DNA of 50,196 nt. It comes from an uncultured Bdellovibrionales bacterium (GTDB lineage: Bacteria > Myxococcota > XYA12-FULL-58-9 > JASMKV01). Below, piece after piece: positions 1 to 47,281 of the stretch (its first letter is position 1; each line of letters starts with the position of its first letter). Location: assembly GCA_964013445.1 (NCBI GenBank), contig CAXGWX010000003.1:1-50196 (forward strand). Reading direction: 5' to 3'. The notes beneath the pieces were generated by a model, which saw only the letters and a program-made list of their open reading frames with translations, was not told the DNA's origin and ran no database searches. A program made the position numbers and the translations under genes.

Positions 1-1236
1 CTTTTTGCGCGGGAAACAGGCTATGATTTAGAAGAACTCGAACCCGAGTATCAGCTGGAAGCGGACCTTGGTATCGACACCGTAAAGCAGGCAGAGATCT
101 TTGCTTTATTGCGTGAAGAGTTCTCTATTCCCAGTGAAATCACTTTTGAGTTGTCGGAGGTACAGACCTTAAACGCGGTTGTTGCTTTCCTGGAAAACTC
201 TGGTGGTACGAGCGCTCAGGAACCGACAGCACCTAAGGAAAAAGAAAGTGTAGAGCCTACGCAAGAAGTGTCTCAGGCAGAGAGTGCAAGAGAAGGAGTT
301 GAGGTTCAGTCTGGCGATGCGAGCGGCTTGCTCAAGGAAATTCAAGAGATTTTTGCTGAACAGACTGGCTACGATGTTGAAGAGCTGGAACCTGACTATC
401 AGCTTGAGGCCGATCTGGGTATTGATACGGTAAAACAGGCTGAAATCTTTTCCCACATTCGTGAGCATTATGGCATTCCTGCGGATGTCACTTTTGAACT
501 CAGTGAGGTTCAGACACTTCATTTGGTGGCGAATTTTATCGGTCAACATCGAGGTGATGGGGAGCAGGTTCCGGTCGAGAAGGTTCCTCAAAGCAGTGTG
601 CTGCCAGAACCTGTAAACGAAGAAAAAGAGCCTACACCAGAAAAGTCATCAGCACTTGTCGCAGGTGAAGGACTTTTAGAGGAGATTCAAAAGCTTTTTG
701 CCGATGAGACCGGCTATGAACTTGAAGATCTGGAGCCCGAACATCAACTTGAGGCGGATTTAGGCATTGATACGGTTAAGCAAGCGGAAGTTTTTGGCAT
801 ATTGCGTCAGCGTTATGGTTTGGAGCAGGAAGAGGGTTTTGACTTAGCTTCGGTGCAAACAATCTCTGCAGTTCATGATTATCTTGTGAGCCGTATTTCA
901 GGCGCAAATAGAGCTGATGGCACCCGCGAGGAGAGCATTGAGGCCAGTCCATCAGCCGTAGAGAGTCCGGTTCGAGAAGAAGCAAGAGTCAGTTCAGCAC
1001 AGGCCGGTGACTTACTGGTTGAGATCACAACCATTTTCGCTGAGCAAACGGGCTACGATGTTGATGAACTCGAACCTGATTATGAGTTGGAAGCGGATTT
1101 GGGTATCGATACAGTTAAGCAGGCTGAGATTTTGAGCCTATTGCGTGAACGCTATGGCTTTGAACAGGATGAAAGTGTCGAGCTGGCAGATTTGCAAACC
1201 CTACATAGAGTTACAGACTATGTGGCCAAGCGCCAG
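1..1236 (+). repeat. Four tandem ACP-domain repeats separated by Glu/Ser/Pro-rich linkers
   Basis: (E/Q)TGY(D/E)xxxLEPxxxLEADLGIDTVKQAE recurs at about 13-99, 360-445, 705-790 and 1045-1130. Confidence 0.93.
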
Positions 1237-4200
1237 CAATCTCCCGAAGTAGAGGAGGAAGGGCAAAGTTTGCCGCAGAGCAGCGTCGAGCAGGAAGCAC
1301 CAAGAGCAGTCACGCAAGGAAGCATTAAGGCGGCGAAGGTCGAGTTAGAGGAATTGCCTTTGATCTTAGGTGCGGCGCGTAATTGCAGAGGGCGACGCGT
1401 CTTGCTAGTGTGCGCAGAAGGCGACACTCGTCAAATCACTCTGACACGAGCACTGGAAAGTCGTGGTGCGGATGTTCGGGTTTGTGATGATTTTCTTTCA
1501 CGCGCTCCTGCTGAATGGGAAAATGTGGTGGTTGACGCAACAGAACGTTGTGTCGATGACGTGTTTGTGCTTGTTCCCGAAAAGGATGAGTGGAGTGCGT
1601 CTAGTGTTAGTGCTCAAATCGAAGCGGTCTTCTTCTTGGCGCGGGCGCTGGCTCGTCGAGGAGATGACTTAGCGGACAAATCTTTTGCTGTTTTGGGGCG
1701 GTCTCGCGGTGTACTGTCTTCCGGGCCTCTTTCAGCTCAGGGGCTCTTTCTGAGTGGTGCATCAGGAATACTTAAGAGTATCGCTAAAGAGTGGCAGGCA
1801 AAGGTGTTGGTTTGTGATTTAGACTTCAGCTCTGCCATCGATGATGCTCTGGAGACAGGTCTCAACGAATGGCTTTCGGATGGTCCTATCGAAATAGGTT
1901 ATATCAAGGGGAAGCGTTATACGCTGAAAGATAGCCAAACCCTTTCCTTGAGTAAGGGAGCTCTAAAGAGTACTGACCTTGTTGTGGCCACGGGCGGAGC
2001 TCGAGGGGTTACTTTTAGTATACTGCATGATTTGGCGAAGCGTGGTTCTTTCCGACTTGTCGTTTTGGGCAGAACTCGTGCTATCGCTTTGAGCGAGAGC
2101 CCGCTGGCATCAATGGGCTTATCAGAACAAAAGGAACTTGCTCGTGCAAGTTTGCTTTCTGCGGGGGAAAAAGCAACGCCGGTAAATATTAGGCGATGGC
2201 TTGAAAAAGAAGAGCAGCGACTCGAGGTTTCGAAAAACTTAGATCTACTTCGAGGTTTGGGTTGCGAAGTTGAAACCGCAATATGTGATGTTTCTAAGCG
2301 TGGTGATGTTCAGGATACGGTATCGACTATTTCTAATCGCTATGGTCGTGTTGATTTACTCTTGCACGGTGCCGGCTTAGAGGAATCTAAATTTATTCAG
2401 GATAAGGACGACAGCGCTTTTGCTCGCGTGTTTGCTCCCAAAGCACAGGCGGCGCTTTTGCTATGGGAAGAATTACAGCCACGAAGAATGGTTTGTATGG
2501 GCTCGGTTGCAGGGCGTTACGGTAATGCGGCGCAAGCTGATTATGCGGCCGCCAATAATGTAATGTCCTCCTTGGCGGGAAGCGAAGAGAATAATGTGTT
2601 GAATATTGCCTGGACTGCTTGGGGTGGGGTGGGAATGGCTACACGTGGCTCTATCAAAAAAGTCCTCGAGGATGCGGGGGTTGAATTGTTGCCCCTGGAA
2701 ATAGGCTCAAGTATTGGTGCGGATTTGCTCGCGAGCGATGTTAAGGGCGAGGTTGTTGTTGCTGGAGAGCTTGGTTCTTTCGCACCTAGCGATGACGGCG
2801 GCGGCCAAAAAGGGTCGACCGGAGCTTCGGGCCAATTTTTTGAGCGCATTGGTGCGGAGGCAGGTAAAACCGTTTATTGCCGTCGCTTCGATGTTCATCA
2901 GGATCCTGGCTTAGATCACCACCGGATCAACGGAGTGCCTGTTTTGCCGGGAGTGCTTGGGATTGAATTGATGGTGCAGGCGGCCAGAGAACACTTTGGC
3001 CAGGACATCCCGGAATTGTCCGATATAAAGTTTAGTTCACCGTTAAAAATGTTTAGAGATGAGCCTGTAGATGTAGAGGTTGAGATTGCTTGGGAGGAGA
3101 GTCAGGTCGTGGCCCGTCTCATTTCTCTTTTTAAGGGGCCGAAGAAATTGCTGCGCAAAGAGCATTTTAGCGCACTTATTCATCTTGAAAGCACAAATGA
3201 CGAGCCAAGAGTGAAGCCATCATTCACGCAAAAGGAGTTTTCAGAAATCACGATTAAGCAAGCCTATGAGAGATATTTCCACGGGCCTCGCTTTAAGGTT
3301 ATGCAGGACCTTATCTCCTGGGATGGCAATGGATTGGTGAGCGCCTTGGCTCATGATCGACCGATTTGGATGCATAAGACCTCGCATACGGAATTCTCTT
3401 CTGCTCCTTTCATGCGTGAAGGTGCGTTCCAGACTGCCGGTCTGTGGGAAATGGTGCACTATGACCGTATGGCACTGCCCTTTGGAGTTAAGCGGGTTAT
3501 GTTTTTTCCTAATAACGCAGCGGAGGGCCCAGTTTACTCTTTCATCGCGAAGACAGGGGAAACGGAAAACGGGTTAATATTTGACTTGTGGTCAATCGAT
3601 GGAAGTGGACGAATTGTTGATTATATGGAGGGCTACGAGACAGTCAGGCTACGTGATTTTGCCGCCGCCGAATGTTTTGACCGACCGAGTCGGGAACCCG
3701 GGACCGATTTGCATGTCTGGCAAAGTATCCAAATTTCGGAAGCGCAAGAATTGCAGGAAAAAGGTGAAGACGAGTTGTCGAAGTTCCTTAGTTCAGGGGA
3801 AAGAGAAGTTTTTTCTGGTTTTACGAAGGACAAGCGTCGGGATGAGTGGTTGGCTGGGCGCATCGCATTAAAGCGTCTGCTTCGCGAAATATCCTTTAGC
3901 CAGAAGGGTGTTATTCTACCCTATACAGATATTGTGATTTATAACGATGCGGCTGGTACCCCTCATTTGGATGTTGTTGGCAGACCGGAACTAAATAGCG
4001 CAAGCGTCTCTATTTCTCATCGCATGGACATGGCAACAGCATCTTGTATTCTGGCGCCTGGACATAGGGTCGGCATCGATGTCGAGTTTATTGAAGAAAA
4101 GCAGAGCGCCTTTCTAAATACCTATTTTACCGCTGCAGAACAGGCTCTTTTCGACGAATCGGATAATTTGTCTTATCTTGTTAATGCATCCTGGGCGGTT

Positions 4201-4410
4201 AAGGAAGCATGTTTGAAAGCACTTGGCATTGGCGCTACAATAGATTTTAGACATATTGAGGTTCGACATCTGGGTGGTACTTGGTGGGTTGAATTTCATG
4301 GGGATGCCCGGGATAAGGCGGAGCGCCTTGGGGTGACAAAGGTAGACGCGTTGGTTGAGCAAAAAGATAATTATGTGATTGCACGTATTACACTGAACGT
4401 AAGTGAATAG
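1..4410 (+). CDS. Pfa-like iterative type I PKS/PUFA-synthase subunit, 5'-truncated: (>=4x ACP)-KR-DH(double hotdog)-4'-phosphopantetheinyl transferase
   Basis: Frame is open from base 1 (LFARETGYDLEELEPEYQLEADLGIDTVKQAE), so 109 is not the real start. Four ACP repeats; KR motifs VVATGGARGVT (~1981) and YGNAAQADYAAAN (~2520); DH motif DHHRINGVPVLPG (~2915) and FHGPRF; C-terminal Sfp-type motifs WLAGRIALK, SISH, GIDVE, WAVKEACLKALG. Confidence 0.9.
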   Translation, partial: LFARETGYDLEELEPEYQLEADLGIDTVKQAEIFALLREEFSIPSEITFELSEVQTLNAVVAFLENSGGTSAQEPTAPKEKESVEPTQEVSQAESAREGVEVQSGDASGLLKEIQEIFAEQTGYDVEELEPDYQLEADLGIDTVKQAEIFSHIREHYGIPADVTFELSEVQTLHLVANFIGQHRGDGEQVPVEKVPQSSVLPEPVNEEKEPTPEKSSALVAGEGLLEEIQKLFADETGYELEDLEPEHQLEADLGIDTVKQAEVFGILRQRYGLEQEEGFDLASVQTISAVHDYLVSRISGANRADGTREESIEASPSAVESPVREEARVSSAQAGDLLVEITTIFAEQTGYDVDELEPDYELEADLGIDTVKQAEILSLLRERYGFEQDESVELADLQTLHRVTDYVAKRQQSPEVEEEGQSLPQSSVEQEAPRAVTQGSIKAAKVELEELPLILGAARNCRGRRVLLVCAEGDTRQITLTRALESRGADVRVCDDFLSRAPAEWENVVVDATERCVDDVFVLVPEKDEWSASSVSAQIEAVFFLARALARRGDDLADKSFAVLGRSRGVLSSGPLSAQGLFLSGASGILKSIAKEWQAKVLVCDLDFSSAIDDALETGLNEWLSDGPIEIGYIKGKRYTLKDSQTLSLSKGALKSTDLVVATGGARGVTFSILHDLAKRGSFRLVVLGRTRAIALSESPLASMGLSEQKELARASLLSAGEKATPVNIRRWLEKEEQRLEVSKNLDLLRGLGCEVETAICDVSKRGDVQDTVSTISNRYGRVDLLLHGAGLEESKFIQDKDDSAFARVFAPKAQAALLLWEELQPRRMVCMGSVAGRYGNAAQADYAAANNVMSSLAGSEENNVLNIAWTAWGGVGMATRGSIKKVLEDAGVELLPLEIGSSIGADLLASDVKGEVVVAGELGSFAPSDDGGGQKGSTGASGQFFERIGAEAGKTVYCRRFDVHQDPGLDHHRINGVPVLPGVLGIELMVQAAREHFGQDIPELSDIKFSSPLKMFRDEPVDVEVEIAWEESQVVARLISLFKGPKKLLRKEHFSALIHLESTNDEPRVKPSFTQKEFSEITIKQAYERYFHGPRFKVMQDLISWDGNGLVSALAHDRPIWMHKTSHTEFSSAPFMREGAFQTAGLWEMVHYDRMALPFGVKRVMFFPNNAAEGPVYSFIAKTGETENGLIFDLWSIDGSGRIVDYMEGYETVRLRDFAAAECFDRPSREPGTDLHVWQSIQISEAQELQEKGEDELSKFLSSGEREVFSGFTKDKRRDEWLAGRIALKRLLREISFSQKGVILPYTDIVIYNDAAGTPHLDVVGRPELNSASVSISHRMDMATASCILAPGHRVGIDVEFIEEKQSAFLNTYFTAAEQALFDESDNLSYLVNASWAVKEACLKALGIGATIDFRHIEVRHLGGTWWVEFHGDARDKAERLGVTKVDALVEQKDNYVIARITLNVSE

Positions 4411-5404: not shown

Positions 5405-6582
5405 GTTTCAACACGCTTTAAAAGGAGTTGAATTCTGGAAACGGCTTCCTCAATATCTTTCTCCGAGGTGGCAAAGGACATTCTGATAAATCCGTTGGCG
5501 CCAAAGCCTTCTCCTGCAACGCAGGCGACCAGACCTTCTTCTAAAAAATGCTCACATAGTTTTAAGGTATTGCCGTATTGCTTACCCAGATAATGGCTAA
5601 AGTCAGGGAAGATATAAAATGCCCCTTGGGGTTTGACCGCTGCAATGCCGGGCAAATCGTTTAAGGCGGAATATATAAAGTCACGCCGTTTTGCGAAGTG
5701 CGCGTGCATTTCATCTACAGGAGCTTGAGAACCCAGGAGAGCCGCACCAGCAGCTGCTTGGGCTATCGAACAAATTCCAGAGGTCGAAGCTCCTTGAATT
5801 CTACTCATGGCTTCAACCAAATCAGCTGGGCCTATAAGAAAGCCAACCCGCCAACCTGTCATGGCATAGGTTTTAGAAACGCCGTTTATCAGCAGTGTGC
5901 GATGGCGCAGACTGGGGGCATCGTGAAACAAACACCTAAAGTCGCTGTCATAGATGAGTCCGTGATAGATATCGTCGGAAACGATATAACAATCAGGATA
6001 CTGCTCCAAAAGGACAGCAAGTTGCTGATAAAAGCTCGTCGGATAAACTGTTCCCGTCGGATTGTTTGGGCTATTAAGAAACAGTAATTTGGTTTTACTT
6101 GAGAGTGTCTTCTCAATGTCTTGAATATCCGGGATAAAGTTATTCTCTGCCGTGGATTCTACAATTTTTGTCTCAGCGTTTTGTAGATGAATCATATCAG
6201 GATAACTCACCCAATAGGGTGAGATAACCACAGCTTCGTCACCGGGTTCCAGAAGGGCGTGACACAAATTAAAAAGGGCGTGTTTGGCGCCAGCACAAAC
6301 CATGATCTGGTTTGTCTCGAAAGAGTGTCCATAAATTTCAGAAAAGAAGCTGCTGATTGCCTCTTTGAGCGCCGGTGTGCCACTGACTGGAGTATATTTG
6401 GTTTTGCCGGAATTGAGGGCTTCGCGGGCCGCTTCTTTGATATATTCGGGGGTGTCGAAATCAGGTTCACCGGCGGCCAGAGATATTACATCTTTACCGG
6501 AAGCTTTGAGCGCTTTTGCGCGCGCGGACATAGCCAACGTGGCAGATGGCTTTACTTTGCTCAGGCGATTGGCAATGTTCAT
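5401..6582 (-). CDS. aspC: PLP-dependent class I/II aminotransferase (aspartate aminotransferase-like)
   Basis: GEPDF, NSPNNPTG, SDDIY, SKTYAMTGWRVG (PLP lysine), IRMSFA. Confidence 0.88.
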   Translation of the reverse strand: MNIANRLSKVKPSATLAMSARAKALKASGKDVISLAAGEPDFDTPEYIKEAAREALNSGKTKYTPVSGTPALKEAISSFFSEIYGHSFETNQIMVCAGAKHALFNLCHALLEPGDEAVVISPYWVSYPDMIHLQNAETKIVESTAENNFIPDIQDIEKTLSSKTKLLFLNSPNNPTGTVYPTSFYQQLAVLLEQYPDCYIVSDDIYHGLIYDSDFRCLFHDAPSLRHRTLLINGVSKTYAMTGWRVGFLIGPADLVEAMSRIQGASTSGICSIAQAAAGAALLGSQAPVDEMHAHFAKRRDFIYSALNDLPGIAAVKPQGAFYIFPDFSHYLGKQYGNTLKLCEHFLEEGLVACVAGEGFGANGFIRMSFATSEKDIEEAVSRIQLLLKRVET

Positions 6583-7064
6583 GAGGAGTATTTGTCCTTA
6601 AGGGCTAATTCAACATGCGGTGGGACCAGTCCAGATAGATTGCCGTCGAACCTGGCAATCTCGCGCACCAGGTTGCTCGAGACGTAGAAGTGTTCTTCAC
6701 CAGTCATCATAAAAATTGTTTCGCAATCCCCATAAAGTCTTTTGTTCATATGAGCCATCTGAAATTCATATTCGAAATCAGAAATTGCCCTTAAGCCTCG
6801 GACCACCATGTGCGCTGCCTGGTCTTTGACAAAGTCCATAAGAAGTCCATCAAAAGCATCTACACTCACTCTGTCTCTATGTGCTTCCGGTATGCTTTGG
6901 GAAATGAGATCAATTCTCTCTTCAACACTAAAGAGGGAGGTTTTTTTCACGTTGTGCGCGATGGCAATAATCAATCGGTCAGCTATGTGCAGAGAGCGCT
7001 CAACCAGATTTAAATGTCCATTGGTTATAGGGTCAAAAGAACCGGGGTAAATGGCCAATCTCAT
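6579..7064 (-). CDS. coaD: Pantetheine-phosphate adenylyltransferase
   Basis: AIYPGSFDPITNGH, VRGLRAISDFEYEFQMA, VSSNLVRE. Confidence 0.97.
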   Translation of the reverse strand: MRLAIYPGSFDPITNGHLNLVERSLHIADRLIIAIAHNVKKTSLFSVEERIDLISQSIPEAHRDRVSVDAFDGLLMDFVKDQAAHMVVRGLRAISDFEYEFQMAHMNKRLYGDCETIFMMTGEEHFYVSSNLVREIARFDGNLSGLVPPHVELALKDKYSS

Positions 7065-7076
7065 GAGCGTCTCCTT

Positions 7077-7622
7077 CTAGCGCATAAAGAAACTTAACGC
7101 GGTATCGCCGAAGATGCGAGAATCTTTCTTCTCCAGACCAAAACACTGATTTTCAACGGTTTTTTTACTTGAATGCTCATAAATTAGGATACCTTCGGGA
7201 TTTAAGAGCGGGTTTTCTTTCAGCCAAAGAGAAACTTGCGTGGCTTGTTCACCCTCATAGGGTGGATCGACAAAGATAATATCAAAAGAAAGGGATTCGC
7301 GAGACAGGATCTTCAACGTTTTGACCGCCTCGTTGCTGTATAAAGTAAAGCTCGCATTGGGAACCAACTCTAGATTTTTTCTTAAAGCCCTCAGAGCGAC
7401 TTTGTCTTTTTCGACAAAACAACAATGTGCTGCATCTCGTGACAAGGCCTCAAGGCCGAGAGCACCGGTACCGGCGAAGAGGTCCAATATTTTTGCATGA
7501 GTGACTTGCGCACCGAGAATCGAGAAGAGGGATTCCCGGATTCGATCTGAAGTCGGACGGGTTCTGTTAGAGTTTGGCGTAGCCAAGCGATGTCCTTTTA
7601 ACTTACCTGAAATGATTCGCAC
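7077..7622 (-). CDS. rsmD: 16S rRNA (guanine(966)-N2)-methyltransferase
   Basis: MRIISG..KG, TRPTSDRIRESLF, LDLFAGTGALGLEALSR, DPPY; conserved rsmD-coaD order. Confidence 0.95.
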   Translation of the reverse strand: MRIISGKLKGHRLATPNSNRTRPTSDRIRESLFSILGAQVTHAKILDLFAGTGALGLEALSRDAAHCCFVEKDKVALRALRKNLELVPNASFTLYSNEAVKTLKILSRESLSFDIIFVDPPYEGEQATQVSLWLKENPLLNPEGILIYEHSSKKTVENQCFGLEKKDSRIFGDTALSFFMR

Positions 7623-7654: not shown

Positions 7655-10600
7655 CTACTCGTTTTCATTGAGCTCTTCGAGTGCATTGTTCAGATGATTG
7701 GGGTTGACGTTTCCTTCAAATTCAAGAGTCGCGTCAAAATCGAGGGAAGTTTTGCTGGTTGCTGCAATATTGCCGAGCCCGTCTGTCTTAAGTCCAACAA
7801 TCATGCGAAAATCACTTCGATCATATGTGGCATTGCTAAGATGCAATTTGCCGAGTTCACTACGATGCTTGAGCTCATTGACATTTCCAGGCTCGAGTAG
7901 AGCCCCCTCCAGGCGGAGTGTACCAGCGGTTAAAAGGGAGTCTTCCAGATCTGCAAAATTGGCGGAAAAGTTGTCGAGATCAACAGCGACCCGGGTCCCT
8001 GGCTGGATAGTAATTTTTTTAGGCACGATTGAAGCGTCATCCGGATCAGTTGCCGGTGCAGAAGTTGTGATATGGCCAGAATCAAGCGTTCCCAAAACTT
8101 GAAAATCCCGGGCAGCAAATTGTACATTTTTTTCGGCATCCACACTGAAGTTCTCCAGCGACATTTCTATTTCTGCTTGCGGTGCTAAATCCAAAGCGAT
8201 TTCCGGCCCGATAATTCCAAAGGCCACATCATTGGCAATGGCGCGGCCCTGCATGGTGGCTTCGCCAGGCACCGTTGACTTGATGCTCCAGTTTTCGCCC
8301 TCAACGTTAATAAGTGCGGAACCAGAAACATCAACTTGCTGAAAATTAAGGACATAATTTGCGTTCTCAATATCGCCAGCAAGCGATTTGTCGATAATCG
8401 GTGGAGAAACAATCGATGCGGATAGCTCAGAGAACACAGAGTCCTCAATGTTCACACGACCCGTACTGTCCAGTTCCAGGTTTCCCTTAAGATGAGCATG
8501 ATGGACCGCGATAAGGGTTTGTGTGTCGTGGCTGTCTAAGACTGGTGGCGCAACAACGCCGGCAAACTCTCCCTCTATTTGTGGAAGTTTCAAATTAAAG
8601 GTGTCTTCTTCGCTGCCTCCTGTTTGAATAACTAAAGATGCATTTTGTACTCTTGCATTTTTGATATCGATTTTACCGCTTGGTACTTGGCCGCGAAGGT
8701 TCAAATCAGTGGTTGTTATATTGCTCAATTCCAATTCGATTGTGGGCGATGCCCCCGCCCGGCCGGCCTTGACCCTAATTTTAACATCGATGGTACTTTC
8801 CCCAAGATTGACACCCATTTCTTCTTTACCAAGTTGCAAGGAGGAGATGTTGGCTTTGCCCTCAATGGTGAAATCGTCGAGGTCGCCGTGGAGTGCAAGT
8901 TGGCTGTCTGGGGCAAACGAGATAAATTGCCCATCACCAAGGTTTAAGGTCGTTGGTTTTAATTCTGTATTTTCGACTGTGAGCTGGGCACTGGCGAGAT
9001 CAACGATTTGTGCAAGGTTGTTCGATGAACTTGTGCTGGTGCGTACGGATGAAGTTGTGTTGGCAGATGTACTCGATGCAGGAGTGCTACTTGCCCGATT
9101 GCTTGAAGCGCCCCCTTCTGGTGAACTGTTGCGTGACGGCAGCGAGCTGTCCACAAGATCCTGGGAGTTAATTTGTATCGGTTCACGAAGATCTGGGATT
9201 TGAGCACTGAGCAACTCAAGTAATTCTCCTTCATCGAGAGGAATTGTTTTTCTGCCGAAAACAGCACTTGTTAGCTCATCATTGACTCTGTCACGGATCA
9301 TATCTTTGATAAAGCTGTCGTCACTGTCGACATAATCAATGATATTCGCAATGCCTAATGCGCCGCTCATTTCCAGCTCATAGATCGGCTCCAGGTAGCC
9401 TTTACCAGTTTTCGGGTCTCTACGAATGACGAGTGATGAAATGGTGGCGGTTACATCCGCGCTGGTGGAAAGTGGTCCGTAACCGTATGCGGTTAAATCG
9501 ATGTCGAGTTTTAGAGCGGGGGATACATTGAGTCTTGAAACGTTTGGAGCGACTTTACCGTTGACCACATGCAATGCGGTGCTCATTTGTCCGGAAGGGA
9601 CAATAAGGTCAACTCTGGCGGTATAACCGACTTTATCGCTTCCCAAAATCCCTAAGTCTTCGAGGTGGGTATTGTTCTCGTTGGCGATGTTAAAGCTGGT
9701 TCTGTTTAATGGACATGTCAGCCTAATCTGAGCTTTTTCGAGTTCGGTGAAAATGTCCATAGGCTGAATTGCAAAATCAGGGAGATTGGTCGGAACATAG
9801 GACGTGGATAGTTCAGAAGTAGAGAGGTTTTCGGGACCAGGCATAAGTAGGCTATCATCGACAGGCAGCAGGGCCATCGTTCCTACTTCGGGAATTGGTT
9901 CATTGGGCAATTCTATTTCAGGTAGTGTCCCTGCATTGCCTGTGCCACGCTCGAAATCAGTTCGCAGAAATAGGCCTTTTAGATTGATGTCGACCTGGGA
10001 GTTTAGGGTGCCGTCGCCAAGAAGCTGTACGTCCATGAGGAGGGAGGTTTGCCCTGTTTCGGCATCAATATTTACCCGGGCGCCTTCCAGCCCAGGAATA
10101 TTTTCGATGTCGAGAAGAGCATCTGCTCCGAGTTTCAGTTCGAGGGTGGCGTCGATTGATGGTGAAGGATCACCTTCAGCCCAAGCCATGTTGTGAACTT
10201 TAAGTGTGCCTTGGGTTCCCGGTTTTAATTCAAGTCCAGGAACATCTTCAGCTTTAAAGCTCAAGGCGTCAAGGGTAACAGCAAATTCCGCATCACCTTC
10301 AAATTGAGGTTTTTGTCCCTCATTCAGGTTAAAGGTATCGAGTCGAAGTACACCATGAGTGTCAGTCGATAAGTCGAGCGCAAGCTTCGTTCGTTCCGGA
10401 TCTCCGTTGAAGGTGGCATCGTCAACATCGATTTGAAAGGTCCATGGATTATCATCATCAGCATCAAGGTTTAGCGAGCTTACGCCGCCTGAAGAATGTA
10501 AGCCAATGGCGCCAGAACCGCTAATAAGGGCTTCATTTAAGCTTAGGTTAAAATGGTCACTTTCAACGAGTTCAACCACACTTTCTTCATTGGCTCCGTT

Positions 10601-12112
10601 AGAAGAGATAAGCCGAGCGTTGAGGCCCTTGGTTGTTGCTTCAAAATCAAAGTCTCCACTCAGACTGTCAAAGTGAATGCTTCCTGTTAAATCGACGTTT
10701 TGAGAATCATGTGTACGGTCAATCTCACCAATCAGGAAATTGGCCGGGCTACCATCAGCACCGGTGACTTCAATGTCTGCACTTAGACCACGCATTTCCA
10801 CATTGGGCAAATTGAGGACCATATCAGGGTGAGCTTTAGAGTAATCTCTGCTGAAGTGTGCAAGTGGCCTTTGGCTGTCGTTTCCTTGTATTGCGAGGGA
10901 TTCCAGTTTCAATCGATGTCGTCGCTCAATGCCAGGGGTTTCCAGATAGATATTTTCCCCTCGGAGTTCAGTGATGGCGCAATCTATGTGTTTTGGTTTA
11001 GTTTTATCCAGACTACCGTCCGCATGGCGGCTGGAGCGAATATTTGCATCAACCCTGATGTGGCCGTTGCCTGCGCTGAGAATACTGTCTTTGGCTTCCA
11101 TGGTCATTTGGGAAATATTCCCATTAAGGGCAACATCTAGATTGTCAAAGCTTCCGCTGCCTTCGATCTGCGTGTCTGGAGCAATATGAAGTTCGAGCCC
11201 GTCACCAAAGCTCATAGGGCCGGTTTTTAGGCTGCCACTAAACCTGATTTGCGCTTCAGAAAAGCGCAGCATACCATCCAACGAATTGGTTGCAGCGCTG
11301 CTGCGAGTGGATGGGCGACTGGTTGTGGAGTCAGTTCTTGTGTTTATATGGGCACTGGGGTTGGTGCCGTCTGTGTTCGTTGAGATGGTTCGATTTGCAC
11401 TAACGCCTTCGTGAGGGGGAGGGATTGGTTTACCGTTGAGCAGGTTAGATACCGAAAGTGGCTCTATTAGAGGTTGGGCTTGTGGCATTTGCCCATGGGA
11501 GGCTAAGAGCGCGACAAAATCTTCGATGTTTTCTGGTATCTTATCTCTGCCTAGTACTTTTTCGGTGATATTGGGGTCTGGAAAGCAGGGCACATCAGCC
11601 TTCAGTTGCCCATCCTTGTCGATATAAATTTGTTCTGCATCCCAAATAAATGGACCATCCAGATCGGTGCGTTCGCCATCGGAGTTTTCAAAGAGAATGC
11701 GCGTGTTCTTGCGATCGATGTTACCGTTTTTGACGGCCAGTTGTACATTCACCCAGGTGTCCTCACGCACTGTTGTTGGCCCGATCTCGTGACCAGCATT
11801 TAAAGGTATGCGTACTTCGACTGAACCATTTTGCACCTGACCGACAGCGGAAGATGAATCGAGGATGACCCTTGGACTGCTAAGAGAGCCCTGTACATTC
11901 AAAAGGCCGGCGGCCACTCGTTCAACATTGGTTGTGGTGCCAGGGGTAACTGCATGGTTGGCTGTAGAGCCTGTTTCAAGAAGATCACTTGGAGCCGTAT
12001 TGGTGGATGGGCTGGCCGCTGTGGTGGACGCCGAGCTGTGTTCTCTGGTGGTGCTGGACGGATCACTGGATGGCAAGGGCTGTCCCGGTCGTCTGACGCC
12101 TAAATCACTCAT
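7655..12112 (-). CDS. Large hypothetical beta-strand-rich protein (~1485 aa) with two-fold internal duplication and Ser/Thr-rich linkers
   Basis: Long uninterrupted ORF. The start is placed at ATG 12112 (MSDLGVRR) because the extension to 12499 overlaps the divergent hydrolase gene. No family recognised. Confidence 0.8.
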   Translation of the reverse strand: MSDLGVRRPGQPLPSSDPSSTTREHSSASTTAASPSTNTAPSDLLETGSTANHAVTPGTTTNVERVAAGLLNVQGSLSSPRVILDSSSAVGQVQNGSVEVRIPLNAGHEIGPTTVREDTWVNVQLAVKNGNIDRKNTRILFENSDGERTDLDGPFIWDAEQIYIDKDGQLKADVPCFPDPNITEKVLGRDKIPENIEDFVALLASHGQMPQAQPLIEPLSVSNLLNGKPIPPPHEGVSANRTISTNTDGTNPSAHINTRTDSTTSRPSTRSSAATNSLDGMLRFSEAQIRFSGSLKTGPMSFGDGLELHIAPDTQIEGSGSFDNLDVALNGNISQMTMEAKDSILSAGNGHIRVDANIRSSRHADGSLDKTKPKHIDCAITELRGENIYLETPGIERRHRLKLESLAIQGNDSQRPLAHFSRDYSKAHPDMVLNLPNVEMRGLSADIEVTGADGSPANFLIGEIDRTHDSQNVDLTGSIHFDSLSGDFDFEATTKGLNARLISSNGANEESVVELVESDHFNLSLNEALISGSGAIGLHSSGGVSSLNLDADDDNPWTFQIDVDDATFNGDPERTKLALDLSTDTHGVLRLDTFNLNEGQKPQFEGDAEFAVTLDALSFKAEDVPGLELKPGTQGTLKVHNMAWAEGDPSPSIDATLELKLGADALLDIENIPGLEGARVNIDAETGQTSLLMDVQLLGDGTLNSQVDINLKGLFLRTDFERGTGNAGTLPEIELPNEPIPEVGTMALLPVDDSLLMPGPENLSTSELSTSYVPTNLPDFAIQPMDIFTELEKAQIRLTCPLNRTSFNIANENNTHLEDLGILGSDKVGYTARVDLIVPSGQMSTALHVVNGKVAPNVSRLNVSPALKLDIDLTAYGYGPLSTSADVTATISSLVIRRDPKTGKGYLEPIYELEMSGALGIANIIDYVDSDDSFIKDMIRDRVNDELTSAVFGRKTIPLDEGELLELLSAQIPDLREPIQINSQDLVDSSLPSRNSSPEGGASSNRASSTPASSTSANTTSSVRTSTSSSNNLAQIVDLASAQLTVENTELKPTTLNLGDGQFISFAPDSQLALHGDLDDFTIEGKANISSLQLGKEEMGVNLGESTIDVKIRVKAGRAGASPTIELELSNITTTDLNLRGQVPSGKIDIKNARVQNASLVIQTGGSEEDTFNLKLPQIEGEFAGVVAPPVLDSHDTQTLIAVHHAHLKGNLELDSTGRVNIEDSVFSELSASIVSPPIIDKSLAGDIENANYVLNFQQVDVSGSALINVEGENWSIKSTVPGEATMQGRAIANDVAFGIIGPEIALDLAPQAEIEMSLENFSVDAEKNVQFAARDFQVLGTLDSGHITTSAPATDPDDASIVPKKITIQPGTRVAVDLDNFSANFADLEDSLLTAGTLRLEGALLEPGNVNELKHRSELGKLHLSNATYDRSDFRMIVGLKTDGLGNIAATSKTSLDFDATLEFEGNVNPNHLNNALEELNENE

Positions 12113-12304
12113 GCTTGCGGTCCCCGTTTTCCTGTCCTTGGATACAACTATCCCAGTATCGATTATTGAATCTACACAGGTTATCGGGGCAAGGGTATGC
12201 TTGTTGCTAAAAAAACTTAAGATCCTGAAATCATAGGAAAAAAAAAGATCCTGCTCTCTTTGTATTTGACAAAAACCAGGCTTTAGGTTGTCCTCAAGGA
12301 AGTC

Positions 12305-13234
12305 ATGCAGAGTGTAGAGAAATATATTCAAGCCCCCGATGGCACTTCGATTTTTGTCAGCATTAAGGGCAGCGGGCCAGCGTTGGTTCTTTCTGACGGC
12401 TTGGGTTGTGATGGCTTTATTTGGCGTTATCTGGAGCCGATGTTGAGTGAGCATTTTCAGGTGATTCATTGGCATTATCCAGGCCATGGATTTTCGCAAA
12501 TGCCTTGTGATCAGAATAGGGTTGGCATTGAGGATCTTAGAGATGTTTTAAAAACAGTGCTTGATGAATTGGGAGTAGAGAAGGCGATTCTTTTTGGGCA
12601 TTCCTTAGGAGTTAATGTGAGTTTGGATTTTGCGTTGACTCATCCAGGCCACACTGACGGTTTGGTTTTATGTTGTGGCAGTTATGCTGATCCGATTGCA
12701 ACTTTTCATGACACTGAGCTGTCAGAATATATTTTTGAAGGTCTCAACTTTTTTACAAAACGTTACCCTGAGGTTAGCCGCGGTGTCTGGCGTGGTCTTC
12801 TCGGTTCTGGCCTGGGTTTTCAACTTGCAAAAATTTCAGAGATTAATGGTGAACTCTTGCGTCCCGCAGACATGAAACCCTACTTTGACCATTTGGCGAA
12901 AATGAATGTGGAGCTATATTTTCACATGGCGGGGCAGGCCAGAGGGCATACTACAGAAGGAAGGTTGGGCAATATTTCTGCTCCAGCATTAATCATCGCA
13001 GGAGAAAATGATACATTTACTCCCTGCTGGTTGTCCCAGAGAATGGAGCAGGGAATCCCGCAAGCGGAACTCTATATTGTTCCCGATGGCACCCATGTTG
13101 CGCCTTTGGAAGATCAAATGGGGGTAAATCGCAAGGTTCATGATTTTTTAGAAGGCAGCGGATTGCTGAATAAAATTACGAACAAAAAGCCAAGAAAGAA
13201 AACAAAAAAGAAAGCGATAAGGAAAACAGTATAA
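12305..13234 (+). CDS. Alpha/beta fold hydrolase
   Basis: GHGFS, nucleophile elbow GHSLG, GENDTFTP, GTH; Lys-rich C-terminal tail. Confidence 0.9.
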   Translation: MQSVEKYIQAPDGTSIFVSIKGSGPALVLSDGLGCDGFIWRYLEPMLSEHFQVIHWHYPGHGFSQMPCDQNRVGIEDLRDVLKTVLDELGVEKAILFGHSLGVNVSLDFALTHPGHTDGLVLCCGSYADPIATFHDTELSEYIFEGLNFFTKRYPEVSRGVWRGLLGSGLGFQLAKISEINGELLRPADMKPYFDHLAKMNVELYFHMAGQARGHTTEGRLGNISAPALIIAGENDTFTPCWLSQRMEQGIPQAELYIVPDGTHVAPLEDQMGVNRKVHDFLEGSGLLNKITNKKPRKKTKKKAIRKTV

Positions 13235-44198: not shown

Positions 44199-45278
44199 AT
44201 GCGCTTAGCTCGATATTTTGCAAAATACTATCTGATGGCGATTTCTTTGACTTGGTTTGCCTTGGTGGTGCTGGTTGTGGCTGCAATGCTTATCGAAAAA
44301 GCTGGGCAGTTGACCAAGCAGCCGGAAGCAGTCACCACTGCGCTGAAGTTAGCGCTCCTGAATGCACTGCCTTTTGGTTATCAGATGCTGCCTCTGGCTT
44401 GTTTTTTTGCACTTATTATTGTGGGCACATTTATGGCGCGCCGTGGCGAATGGTTGGCGGCGGAAGCGGGCGGCGTTAAGGGCATGGGACGCTGGGGCGG
44501 TTTGGCCTTTGTCACTTTGTGTTGTTCCTTTGGGGCTTACGCTGCGGGCGAAACAATCTTACCTATGGCTCTACATAAGATTGAGCACATTCAGCGCCAC
44601 GAATTAAAACGGGTCGATGCATTGACTCGATTTTATGAGCGCAGAAACCATTGGTATAAGGACGCAGACCATTATCTCTTTTTGCCGACTTTTGACCGCA
44701 AGAAAAAAGAATTTTACGAGCCTGTCATTTATAAAGCGGATGAGGGCAAGTTGAGCGAGATTTATGAAGGCCGTATCTTAAGAGAAAGTGCAGAGGGGTG
44801 GTTTCTTGTTGATGCACTTGTTTGGTCCGTGAACAGCCCGAAAGTAAAGCAGGTGGAGCGTTTGCAGGTCCACTTAAATGTTAGTGCAGGCAATTTGATG
44901 GATGTTACCGGTGACCCGAGGCAGATGACCCACAGTGAAATTCAGAGACTTATTGAGGATAGGGAAAAGGCTGGTTTTGATACGGCAATACACATTTTGG
45001 AGAAGGAGCAAAGGATTGGTTACCCTTTGGCGGCCCTGGCGCTTTTCTTTCTTATGTTGCCCTGGGCATTGCAGCCCGCTTTACGTCGCTCGATGGCAGT
45101 GAATTTAGGTGTGGGGGTTGTGATTATCAGTGTGCTTTTATCCCTGAGCCATTTTGTGCGCATGCTTGCGCTGGGGCAAAAGATTCCTGTTGCCTTGGGG
45201 GGATGGGGCCTAACACTCGTGTGTCTGGTTTTTATGCCTCTGTCTTATTTTCTCTATAGGCGGCGCTACTTAGTCTAG
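44199..45278 (+). CDS. lptG: LPS export ABC transporter permease LptG (LptF/LptG family)
   Basis: LARYF, MARRGEWLA.EAGG, second tandem paralog following lptF. Confidence 0.82.
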   Translation: MRLARYFAKYYLMAISLTWFALVVLVVAAMLIEKAGQLTKQPEAVTTALKLALLNALPFGYQMLPLACFFALIIVGTFMARRGEWLAAEAGGVKGMGRWGGLAFVTLCCSFGAYAAGETILPMALHKIEHIQRHELKRVDALTRFYERRNHWYKDADHYLFLPTFDRKKKEFYEPVIYKADEGKLSEIYEGRILRESAEGWFLVDALVWSVNSPKVKQVERLQVHLNVSAGNLMDVTGDPRQMTHSEIQRLIEDREKAGFDTAIHILEKEQRIGYPLAALALFFLMLPWALQPALRRSMAVNLGVGVVIISVLLSLSHFVRMLALGQKIPVALGGWGLTLVCLVFMPLSYFLYRRRYLV

Positions 45279-46271
45279 ACTGGCGAGTTTTGTGACTAAG
45301 TCCACAACCCGATTAGAGTAGCCCCATTCGTTGTCATACCAGGAAACAACCCGCGCAAAGCCGTCGCCCTGTGCCTGTGTAAGTAAGGAATCAAAAATCG
45401 ACGAATGTGGATTGCCGACAATATCACTGGACACTAAGGGGATCTCTGAGAATTGTAGAATGCCTTGTAGTTTCTCATTAGCGGCACTTTGCACAGCAGC
45501 ATTGATTTCTTCAGCAGAAGGTTGAGCTTTGAGTCGCACGACCAAATCAACGATAGAACCATCGGAGACAGGGACCCGCACCGCCATACCGTCGAGGCGC
45601 CCTTCAAGATGAGGAAGTATTTTGCCGACAGCCTTTGCTGCGCCGGTTGTGGTTGGAATAATGTTTTCCGCCGCTGCCCTCGAGCGACGAAAATCCTTAT
45701 GGGGTACATCCGCCAAGCGCTGGTCATTGGTAAAGGCGTGCACCGTTGTCATGACACCGTCATCAATGCCAAAGGCCTCGTCAAGAACATAGGCGATGGG
45801 GGCCAAGCAGTTTGTGGTGCAGGAGGCATTCGAGACGATTCGGTGCGAGGCAAGAAGTTGATCATCGTTCACCCCCATAACGATCATGGCGTCAATTTCA
45901 TCTTTGGGTGGAACGGTTAAAATGACCCTTTTGGCTCCAGCTTGGAGGTGTTTTTCGAGAGTTTCTTTGTCGCGAAAAATCCCCGTTGATTCAATCACCA
46001 CATCAACGTTCAAATCGCCCCATTTGAGGGCAGCCGGGTCCTTTTCATTGGTAATGTTAACGTGTTCTCCGGCAACGATGAGTCCGGTGTTGTCGTAATC
46101 CACATCTTTGCGAAATACACCCATCACCGTGTCGTACTGCAAAAGGTAGGCGAGGGTTTTATTGTCGAAGAGATCGTTGATGCCAACGACTTCAATGTTT
46201 TCGTTGCCGCTTAGAACACGAAAGACTGATCGACCAATTCGGCCAAAGCCATTGATTGCTACTCGAATCAT
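45270..46271 (-). CDS. gap: Type I glyceraldehyde-3-phosphate dehydrogenase (intact active site)
   Basis: INGFGRIGR, SNASCTTNC, TTVHA, IIPTTTGAA, GMAVRVP, WYDNEWGYS. Confidence 0.96.
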   Translation of the reverse strand: MIRVAINGFGRIGRSVFRVLSGNENIEVVGINDLFDNKTLAYLLQYDTVMGVFRKDVDYDNTGLIVAGEHVNITNEKDPAALKWGDLNVDVVIESTGIFRDKETLEKHLQAGAKRVILTVPPKDEIDAMIVMGVNDDQLLASHRIVSNASCTTNCLAPIAYVLDEAFGIDDGVMTTVHAFTNDQRLADVPHKDFRRSRAAAENIIPTTTGAAKAVGKILPHLEGRLDGMAVRVPVSDGSIVDLVVRLKAQPSAEEINAAVQSAANEKLQGILQFSEIPLVSSDIVGNPHSSIFDSLLTQAQGDGFARVVSWYDNEWGYSNRVVDLVTKLASLD

Positions 46272-47281
46272 GTGGTGAGCCCCTTTTGTTCCAGGTGCTC
46301 CATGACTTCGACGACGCGGTGCGCATAACCCCAGCCGTTGTCGTACCAGGCAATCATTTTCACGAGATTGTCTCCCATGGTGCTGGTGGCCAGGGAGTCG
46401 AAGACCGACGAGTGTGGGCTTTGCTTCACATCCGAGGATACAATGGGGTCGTCAACATATTCGATGAGATCTTTAAAGTCGGATTCCGCAGCGCTTTCCA
46501 CCGCAGCGTTGATGCTCTCGGCAGTGATGGGCTGTTTGGTGTGGGCTACCATGTCGAGAAGAGAGCCGTTGATCACTGGGACATTCAAGGTCATGGCGCT
46601 TACTTTGCCTTCTAATTGCGGCAATACATCCATGAGTATGTGGGCGGTGGATGTTTGGCTTGGAATAATATTTTCCGAGGCTGCCCGTGAGCGGCGCATT
46701 TCGTAGGAAGGGACATCTGAGAGGCTTTGGTCATTGGTGTAAGCATGTACGGAGGTGACGTGAAGCCGTTCAATGCCGAAGGCCTGATCAATAACTTTAG
46801 CGATGGGGGTGGCACAGTGTGCGGTGATGGATGCATTGGATATAATTTTATGCTCCGCTCCGAGTTGGTCCTCATTGACGCCCATGACCACCGTGATGTC
46901 CGCTTTGTCGGTCGGTGCAACGCAGAGAATGAGTCGCTTGGCCCCTGCATCAATATGCTTACTCAGGGTGGCATATGACATGTGTTTGCGGGTGGCTTCA
47001 ATAACGATGTCCACATTATGCTCGCGCCAATCCACATCACCAGGCTCTTTGCCATAGAGCATGGTGGTGGCTTTACCACGGGCAAAGAGTTGGTCGTTGG
47101 CGATGCTCACCTTGTGTGGGAAGCGGCCAAGAATCGTGTCGTAGCTGAGTAGATAGGCGAGATTTTCGTGGTCGGCGATATCGCTGATTGCAACCACATC
47201 GATATCGTCACGGCCGTGCAGAATTCGAAAAATCGAACGCCCAAGACGACCAAAGCCCATGATGCCAACGCGTAAGGTCAT
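46268..47281 (-). CDS. GAPDH-family paralog lacking the catalytic cysteine (probable pseudoenzyme)
   Basis: Full-length GAPDH fold (GFGRLGR, MGVN, VHAYT, RRSRAA.ENIIP, VSSD, WYDN) but SNASITAHC replaces SNASCTTNC. Confidence 0.88.
   Translation of the reverse strand: MTLRVGIMGFGRLGRSIFRILHGRDDIDVVAISDIADHENLAYLLSYDTILGRFPHKVSIANDQLFARGKATTMLYGKEPGDVDWREHNVDIVIEATRKHMSYATLSKHIDAGAKRLILCVAPTDKADITVVMGVNEDQLGAEHKIISNASITAHCATPIAKVIDQAFGIERLHVTSVHAYTNDQSLSDVPSYEMRRSRAASENIIPSQTSTAHILMDVLPQLEGKVSAMTLNVPVINGSLLDMVAHTKQPITAESINAAVESAAESDFKDLIEYVDDPIVSSDVKQSPHSSVFDSLATSTMGDNLVKMIAWYDNGWGYAHRVVEVMEHLEQKGLTT

Follow-up and report, generated by a model that had tools for sequence, protein, structure and literature searches.

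The stretch of DNA analysed here (50,196 nucleotides, called the window below) comes from an uncultured Bdellovibrionales bacterium (assembly GCA_964013445.1, contig CAXGWX010000003.1, positions 1 to 50,196) and opens inside a megasynthase gene whose acyl carrier protein (ACP) domains all have threonine at the site where 4'-phosphopantetheine is otherwise attached to serine. Our findings show that this replacement of the carrier Ser by Thr is real, strongly selected and family-wide. To our knowledge, the acyl carrier domains studied so far all have a cofactor-bearing Ser, and the Ser acceptor is treated as invariant in the enzymology of fatty acid, polyketide and non-ribosomal peptide synthases and is built into motif definitions and the active-site checks of annotation. 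We consider it likely that the Asp-Thr (D-T) repeats are working carrier domains and that their Thr bears 4'-phosphopantetheine installed by a dedicated phosphopantetheinyl transferase (PPTase).

Four of the domains are encoded in tandem by window positions 1-1242 (i.e. within the first 414 residues of reading frame 1), all of them read LGIDTVKQAE, and around the attachment site each repeat reads LEADLGIDTVKQAE. The Pfam profile PF00550 (PP-binding) scores this frame at 90 bits over four stretches (cut-off 20.8), which on the forward strand are ACP 1 at 1-210 (5' end cut by the contig edge; Thr codon ACC, 79-81; 26.1 bits), ACP 2 at 313-558 (ACG, 427-429; 35.4 bits; the copy that we aligned to solved ACPs and modelled), ACP 3 at 658-903 (ACG, 772-774; 27.5 bits) and ACP 4 at 997-1242 (ACA, 1111-1113; 33.5 bits). 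These are exactly the positions at which a first-pass annotation of the same DNA had placed four D-T ACPs with these codons. It had also held that a sequencing error was not to blame, and with this we concur: the four Thr codons are also covered by contigs of the public runs X1, X2 and X6, which belong to three different studies (one run possibly being of the source sample itself), with no difference listed at the 12 positions, and the same Thr recurs in hundreds of relatives, so sequencing error is excluded as its cause. Nor is chance a viable explanation, since the genome's own AcpP reads DSL.

The window begins at a contig end (G000:C3:1) and thus holds the 3' half of the gene only (P0001; window 1-4410, forward strand, 1469 codons plus stop, with frame 1 open from base 1), the assembly break falling inside the tandem ACP repeats. 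The 5' half (P0002, 1701 aa; L001:14897-19999), on contig C5 of the same assembly, encodes a ketosynthase (KS), an ACP, an acyltransferase (AT) and a second KS, and the last 60 nt of C5 (L001 19940-19999) overlap window 1-60 with a single mismatch at window position 55 (C/T); the T variant is seen in three other runs, whose contigs extend beyond the window start. The ACP on C5 (L001:16454-16699; P0002 aa 520-601) lies between the first KS and the AT, a placement seen in the PPTase-fused subfamily, and is again LGIDTVKQAE with an ACG codon (29 bits). A genome of the same genus has the gene as one intact open reading frame (ORF) of 3183 codons with 1+4 ACPs, all D-T. Our two fragments together cover this ORF from one end to the other, which means that the assembly gap has cost no ACP and that the gene has no Ser-ACP further upstream. 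This disposes of the upstream Ser-ACP that the first-pass annotation had allowed for: in the retrieved gene the count it had called for is none for D-S and five for D-T, Thr standing in 5/5 copies where a D-S-[LIV] motif would have Ser. The full protein of ~3180 aa reads KS-ACP-AT-KS-ACP4-KR-DH-PPTase (KR, ketoreductase; DH, dehydratase) with all catalytic motifs present in KS1, AT (GHSLG, HAFH), KS2, KR and DH; the second KS, on the C5 fragment, retains its Cys and both His residues. That the gene might be a decaying relic or an assembly artefact with meaningless Thr sites is an idea invited by its split over two contigs at a break inside tandem repeats. It is refuted, and we give it practically no credence: both fragments are open and tile the intact orthologue, the gene is present in 20 of the 21 genomes searched from this genus or order (the sole genome without a match being 81% complete), independent runs have the same codons and the catalytic motifs are all intact.

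As for the residue itself, phmmer alignment to solved structures puts the Thr in the column of the phosphopantetheinyl Ser of the PigH ACP doublet, the Aquifex ACP and the Helicobacter ACP. In the AlphaFold model of ACP 2 (mean predicted local distance difference test, pLDDT, 90.3), a helical bundle, residues 39-53 form helix II and the attachment residue, Thr39, comes first in it, at the N-terminal end, and the top Foldseek matches of this model in the PDB are all ACPs (template modelling scores of 0.72-0.83 for the ten best). The domains are thus like canonical ACPs (PF00550) in fold, in the position of the site on helix II, in the flanking Asp and in an above-cut-off Pfam score, but differ from them in having Thr for Ser and in their lower scores (26-35 bits for the window ACPs versus 62 bits for AcpP of the same genome). 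In this context, the precomputed Pfam lists of five relatives (P0012, P0136, P0169, P0170, P0223) lack PF00550 despite D-T ACPs (checked in P0136), which together with the low scores suggests that automated annotation may overlook these carrier domains. The sources mostly label the family's proteins 'SDR family oxidoreductase'.

To what extent Thr is the rule was surveyed in several samples of relatives. When the ACP region served as query of a word-seeded search, which yielded 3025 proteins (2572-5000 aa, E<=1e-3), tandem LG[IV]DTVKQ[AV]E motifs, 3-8 per protein, were present in 120/120 of the matches listed; because such a search favours the motif, it was repeated with the KR-DH region, which has no ACP words, and here 119 of the 120 matches listed were Thr-only, the remaining one (P0129) having Ser in all four ACPs. 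Extraction with a hidden Markov model from 223 proteins yielded 976 domains (967 T, 6 S, 3 gaps), and the genomes of GTDB, scanned at one per species, had at least 548 stretches that matched, from which 79 species-representative loci were kept (235 domains: 226 T, 3 S, 6 gaps). Finally, an exhaustive phmmer search of 1.84 billion representatives seeded with KS2 returned 522 proteins at E<=1e-30; among the best 150 of the 522, 134 had detectable ACPs with 355 T, 18 S, 1 P (in a degenerate motif) and 4 gaps, or by protein 126 Thr-only, six Ser-only and two other. Thr accordingly makes up 94-99% of the domains across three samples and, that single Pro apart, about 1,500 domains have only Thr or Ser at the site. 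Selection on Thr, as the first-pass annotation had argued from three codons, is borne out on this larger scale: all four Thr codons are in use across the loci, more than one of them in 29/65 multi-copy loci, and since a single step turns any Thr codon into a Ser codon, Thr is held by selection. Moreover, DLG[IV]DTVKQAE is the best-conserved part of the ACP domain across phyla.

The rare Ser-bearing members are instructive. On a tree of the KS2 region (FastTree only, SH-like supports) the six Ser-only proteins (P0129, P0226, P0300, P0343, P0296, P0353), which in most cases have Ser in all of their detected ACPs (2-5 copies), the copies having switched together, need at least five changes and are each nested in a well-supported Thr clade, P0129 and P0226 as sisters and the other four singly. 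There are also mixed proteins, namely P0276 (S-T-S), P0024 and P0034 (one S plus five T each) and loci L006, L013 and L016, where the N-terminal ACP between KS1 and AT has Ser and the tandem ACPs have Thr. Ser-only proteins inside Thr clades together with mixed proteins indicate that Ser and Thr are interchangeable at the site.

Which enzyme might act on this Thr is suggested by the gene itself. Its C-terminal domain (window 3676-4407, forward strand; aa 1226-1469; Pfam ACPS 59 bits; motifs GIDVE and WAVKEACLKALG) is a fused PPTase of Sfp type, consisting of two AcpS-like halves that each align to solved AcpS, the second also to the PPT domain of fungal fatty acid synthase, and bearing the Mg/CoA-binding GxDxE and the WxxKE(A/S)xxK motifs. 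Across 40 fused or stand-alone relatives the catalytic residues of GxDxE, WxxKExxK and SxSH (His near-invariant) do not vary, and R54, P96, G133, D135, E137, E155, W173, K176, E177, K181 and G186 are invariant. Like Sfp-type (group II) PPTases it is a pseudo-dimer of AcpS-like halves (~240 aa); unlike them, it is fused to, or in relatives encoded beside, a synthase whose only carriers bear Thr. With a profile built from 56 clean PPTase domains we surveyed the co-occurrence that the first-pass annotation had proposed to look for: among the 50 loci that show 7 kb or more of downstream sequence after the last ACP, the PPTase is fused in 19 and separate but of the same clade within 10 kb in 25, hence fused or adjacent in 44/50. 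Over all 79 loci the figures are 27 fused, 27 separate and 25 with none seen, many of these 25 being short or incomplete contigs. Compared with 55 other PPTases in search of a signature specific to Thr, that of the all-Ser protein P0129 departs at four positions conserved in the rest (n=1), one of them a Gly that is invariant elsewhere and conserved in Sfp as well. A predicted complex of PPTase, CoA, Mg and ACP 2 was graded 'supports binding' (score 0.71 versus 0.01 for the best of three controls), a mark reached by 58/80 solved complexes and 2/110 mismatched pairs; contact agreement between runs was at least 94%, partner pLDDT at least 84, and Thr39 of the ACP sits against the invariant Glu177. 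As similar complexes have already been solved (e.g. AcpS-ACP, 4dxe), such docking speaks for likeness only and says nothing about chemistry.

In the assembled genome (92% complete, 384 contigs) the only other carrier protein is AcpP with its DSL motif, and the only other PPTase is a 140-aa AcpS. We found no Ser-ACP in the megasynthase gene or adjoining it. So to our minds, modification of Thr by the dedicated PPTase is the likely scenario, because the residue has the exact homologous position at a site that is Thr or Ser only (bar the one degenerate motif), because switches from Thr to Ser recur and mixed proteins exist, because conservation peaks in the attachment motif and an otherwise intact thioester-handling synthase has no other carrier, and because nothing else encoded in this genome is a plausible substrate for the fused PPTase. 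Under this scenario the five ACPs would be genuine acyl carrier domains of an iterative megasynthase resembling those for polyunsaturated fatty acids (PUFA), in which Thr at the start of helix II would replace the canonical Ser as the 4'-phosphopantetheine acceptor. The synthase's own C-terminal Sfp-type PPTase would install the cofactor - in most relatives the task would fall to a same-clade PPTase that has its own gene just downstream - and the thiol of the resulting Thr-O-phosphopantetheine could then carry malonyl and growing acyl chains between KS, KR and DH, as in PfaA.

Several points weigh against this scenario. The modification itself is something we infer from sequence, fold, conservation and PPTase linkage, and the activity of the synthase is likewise read from conservation of its domains. 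In 6 of the 50 loci that have enough downstream sequence (7 kb or more) there is no PPTase within 10 kb, the docking pass may stem from the predictor's memory of solved complexes, and among the 40 sequences of the PPTase clade we see no obvious departure of the active site from the canonical motifs that would point to adaptation to Thr. Furthermore, the S36T variant of E. coli ACP is reported (PMC3340395) as unable to receive 4'-phosphopantetheine and non-functional, which makes Thr a poor acceptor for at least AcpS. The same report lends some weight to an alternative that the first-pass annotation had set beside Thr-linked holo-ACPs, namely that the D-T repeats go unmodified and serve as structural or docking modules of ACP shape, with the acyl chains carried in trans by AcpP or by an unassembled carrier; AcpP and AcpS are indeed both encoded in this genome, and its incompleteness and fragmentation would leave room for a further carrier. 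We regard this as improbable, however, as it would not account for the attachment motif being the most conserved part of the domain or for a Thr/Ser-only site in about 1,500 domains, would leave a dedicated Sfp-type PPTase that is fused or adjacent in most loci without a substrate, and finds no Ser-ACP in the gene or next to it. Of the two alternatives put forward at the outset, it is therefore the Thr-linked holo-ACP that the evidence favours, by inference, and the structural repeats with an upstream Ser-ACP that fall away for the gene itself.

A different tethering chemistry, in which the Thr hydroxyl bears another group (an acyl chain directly as oxoester or some other phosphodiester-linked group), would fit with the strict keeping of Thr over Ser, as this hints at a need beyond a bare hydroxyl. 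To us it seems highly improbable, for the enzyme to which the synthase is so tightly linked is a PPTase whose CoA and Mg motifs are intact, all-Ser variants occur naturally within Thr clades, and KS, AT, KR and DH are canonical thioester-handling domains. Of these, the KR (window 1984-2625, forward strand; aa 662-875; Pfam KR 94 bits) has the motifs GGARGVT and YAAAN, and the PKS-type DH (2860-3657, forward strand; aa 954-1219; Pfam PKS_DH_N and PS-DH) has an HxxxGxxxxP motif. Returning to 4'-phosphopantetheine on Thr, why Thr should be kept, given that Ser is evidently tolerated, is a matter for speculation: it might insulate the synthase from housekeeping AcpS or from phosphodiesterases and hydrolases, or its phosphodiester, again speculatively, might be less prone to beta-elimination. 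Taking the family as a whole, we lean - with somewhat less assurance than for the gene at hand - towards O-(4'-phosphopantetheinyl)-threonine being the native linkage throughout, made by a Thr-accepting PPTase clade, with the switch from Ser acting as an orthogonality device against AcpS and holo-ACP hydrolases.

Among known systems, PfaA is an obvious comparison. Its family model TIGR02813 is the best NCBIfam match of both fragments and the KS-AT-tandem ACPs-KR-DH order is shared, but the scores of 307 bits (P0001) and 632 bits (P0002) stay below the cut-off of 1010, even when summed, and our gene differs from PfaA in that its chain includes a second KS and ends in a fused PPTase. PfaA ACPs, moreover, carry Ser at the attachment residue, in a motif that the first-pass annotation gives as LGIDSIKRVE. 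Also unlike a PUFA synthase set with its partner subunits PfaC and PfaD, this genome has no PfaD that we could find (TIGR02814), and outside the megasynthase gene its KS domains amount to two frames of ~400 aa with weak matches. Identity as PfaA was rejected on these two grounds, the sub-threshold TIGR02813 scores and the lack of PfaD in a 92%-complete genome. Enediyne polyketide synthases (PKSE; SgcE/CalE8 type) are iterative KS-AT-ACP-KR-DH enzymes with a C-terminal, self-activating PPTase and no enoylreductase (ER) domain that make polyene products; they have one Ser-ACP and one KS. The likeness of our gene to PKSE consists in the fused PPTase and the absence of an ER domain and hints at a polyene or polyunsaturated product.

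Judging by architecture and distribution as described in the main text of a 2011 paper, the D-T family matches the uncharacterised 'Type R' secondary lipid synthases. These were defined there by a single pfaA-like gene with KS-MAT-CLF-ACP(3-6)-KR layout (MAT, malonyl-CoA acyltransferase; CLF, chain length factor) and an associated PPTase, scattered over Acidobacteria, Elusimicrobia and Chloroflexi, with Koribacter, Solibacter, Elusimicrobium minutum and Roseiflexus castenholzii providing reference genes and an acetyl-CoA carboxylase (ACC) gene in the Koribacter cluster (Shulse & Allen 2011, PMC3098273). Our gene resembles Type R in having KS, AT, a second KS, four tandem ACPs, KR and PPTase; D-T relatives of the same layout occur in Type R taxa, i.e. 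Roseiflexus sp. (P0198), an Elusimicrobiales metagenome-assembled genome (MAG; P0050) and Acidobacteriaceae loci, and, as in Koribacter, an ACC gene is found in operons of D-T relatives. Unlike the Type R so described, it has a fused PPTase, an extra ACP between KS1 and AT, a DH and a KS2 that retains its Cys. The word 'threonine' is absent from the main text of PMC3098273. Our literature search found nothing on the Type R family beyond the 2011 paper, and term searches of a preprint (10.1101/2025.01.28.635281) and of a JACS Au 2026 article (PMC13291983) gave nothing on a Thr acceptor. In the open-access full-text literature we found no description of a Thr acceptor or of the LGIDTVKQAE-type motif; subscription journals and supplements lie outside this scope, so that a prior description there is possible.

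The suspicion voiced in the first-pass annotation that the motif might mark a widespread but unstudied family proved well founded, with D-T relatives in many bacterial and some archaeal groups. At 90% identity the family comprises over 3,000 protein clusters, and its named matches come from some twelve bacterial phyla and from three groups of archaea. The closest are MAGs of an uncultured Bdellovibrionales bacterium (67%) and of Myxococcota; named species include Desulfoluna butyratoxydans, Persicimonas caeni, Amycolatopsis mongoliensis, Actinoplanes sp. KI2 and Roseiflexus sp., and the bacterial MAGs come from Myxococcota, Bdellovibrionales, Acidobacteriota, Chloroflexota, Actinomycetota, Spirochaetota, Elusimicrobiota and Calditrichaeota. 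In the phylum of our bacterium, the gene was found in 7/19 more distant genomes. The members in archaeal MAGs (Thermoplasmatota, Heimdallarchaeota, Methanobacteriota) are full-length, have D-T ACPs and have the PPTase fused (loci L008, L009, L018, L019, L027, L040, L077; proteins P0024, P0073, P0183, P0209), and in L008 and L027 an ACC carboxyltransferase, BioY and a biotin carboxylase are encoded close by. One full-length member (P0081) bears the source label Acer saccharum (sugar maple) and is most likely a bacterial contamination of the plant assembly.

In other phyla (Acidobacteriota, Chloroflexota, Actinomycetota, Spirochaetota, Calditrichaeota) the synthase is part of an operon with the order acyl-CoA dehydrogenase-like gene, D-T synthase, ACC and PPTase (L043, L072, L073, L061, L039, L055). 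The ACC is mostly a multidomain protein of ~1900 aa arranged as biotin carboxylase (BC), biotin carboxyl carrier protein, a central part and carboxyltransferase (CT), with separate CT and BC genes in L055, and the presence of such a dedicated enzyme implies malonyl thioester chemistry. A GNAT acetyltransferase gene follows immediately downstream in L011, L017 and L065. At the locus of our own gene, the neighbours hold no pathway clue: those upstream (mreBCD, PBP2, rodA) and downstream (AlgH, PDZ, an aminotransferase, a CoaD-like gene, RsmD) are housekeeping genes. In the window, a cytidylyltransferase-like gene (161 aa, the size of the phosphopantetheine adenylyltransferase CoaD) lies beside an RsmD-like methyltransferase gene at 6579-7622 on the reverse strand, 2-3 kb downstream of the synthase; the pair are probably ordinary housekeeping genes unlinked to it. 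Also on the reverse strand are an ORF of 1614 aa at 7655-12499 that has no Pfam match at E<=1e-4 and, at 45270-47281, two GAPDH paralogues side by side.

Taken for what they say about carrier biology, our data present a large and phylogenetically broad family that carries Thr under strong selection at a supposedly invariant Ser site. Should the Thr be modified as we propose, an essential post-translational modification would gain a form not described before, and the PPTases concerned would have a new acceptor specificity, usable as orthogonal pairs for tagging or activation. It would also mean that carrier domains of these synthases are at risk of scoring low, of being missed or of being read as lacking a Ser acceptor. 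For the organisms themselves, the family points to an abundant, uncharacterised lipid or polyene pathway in this genus and order and in many environmental lineages.
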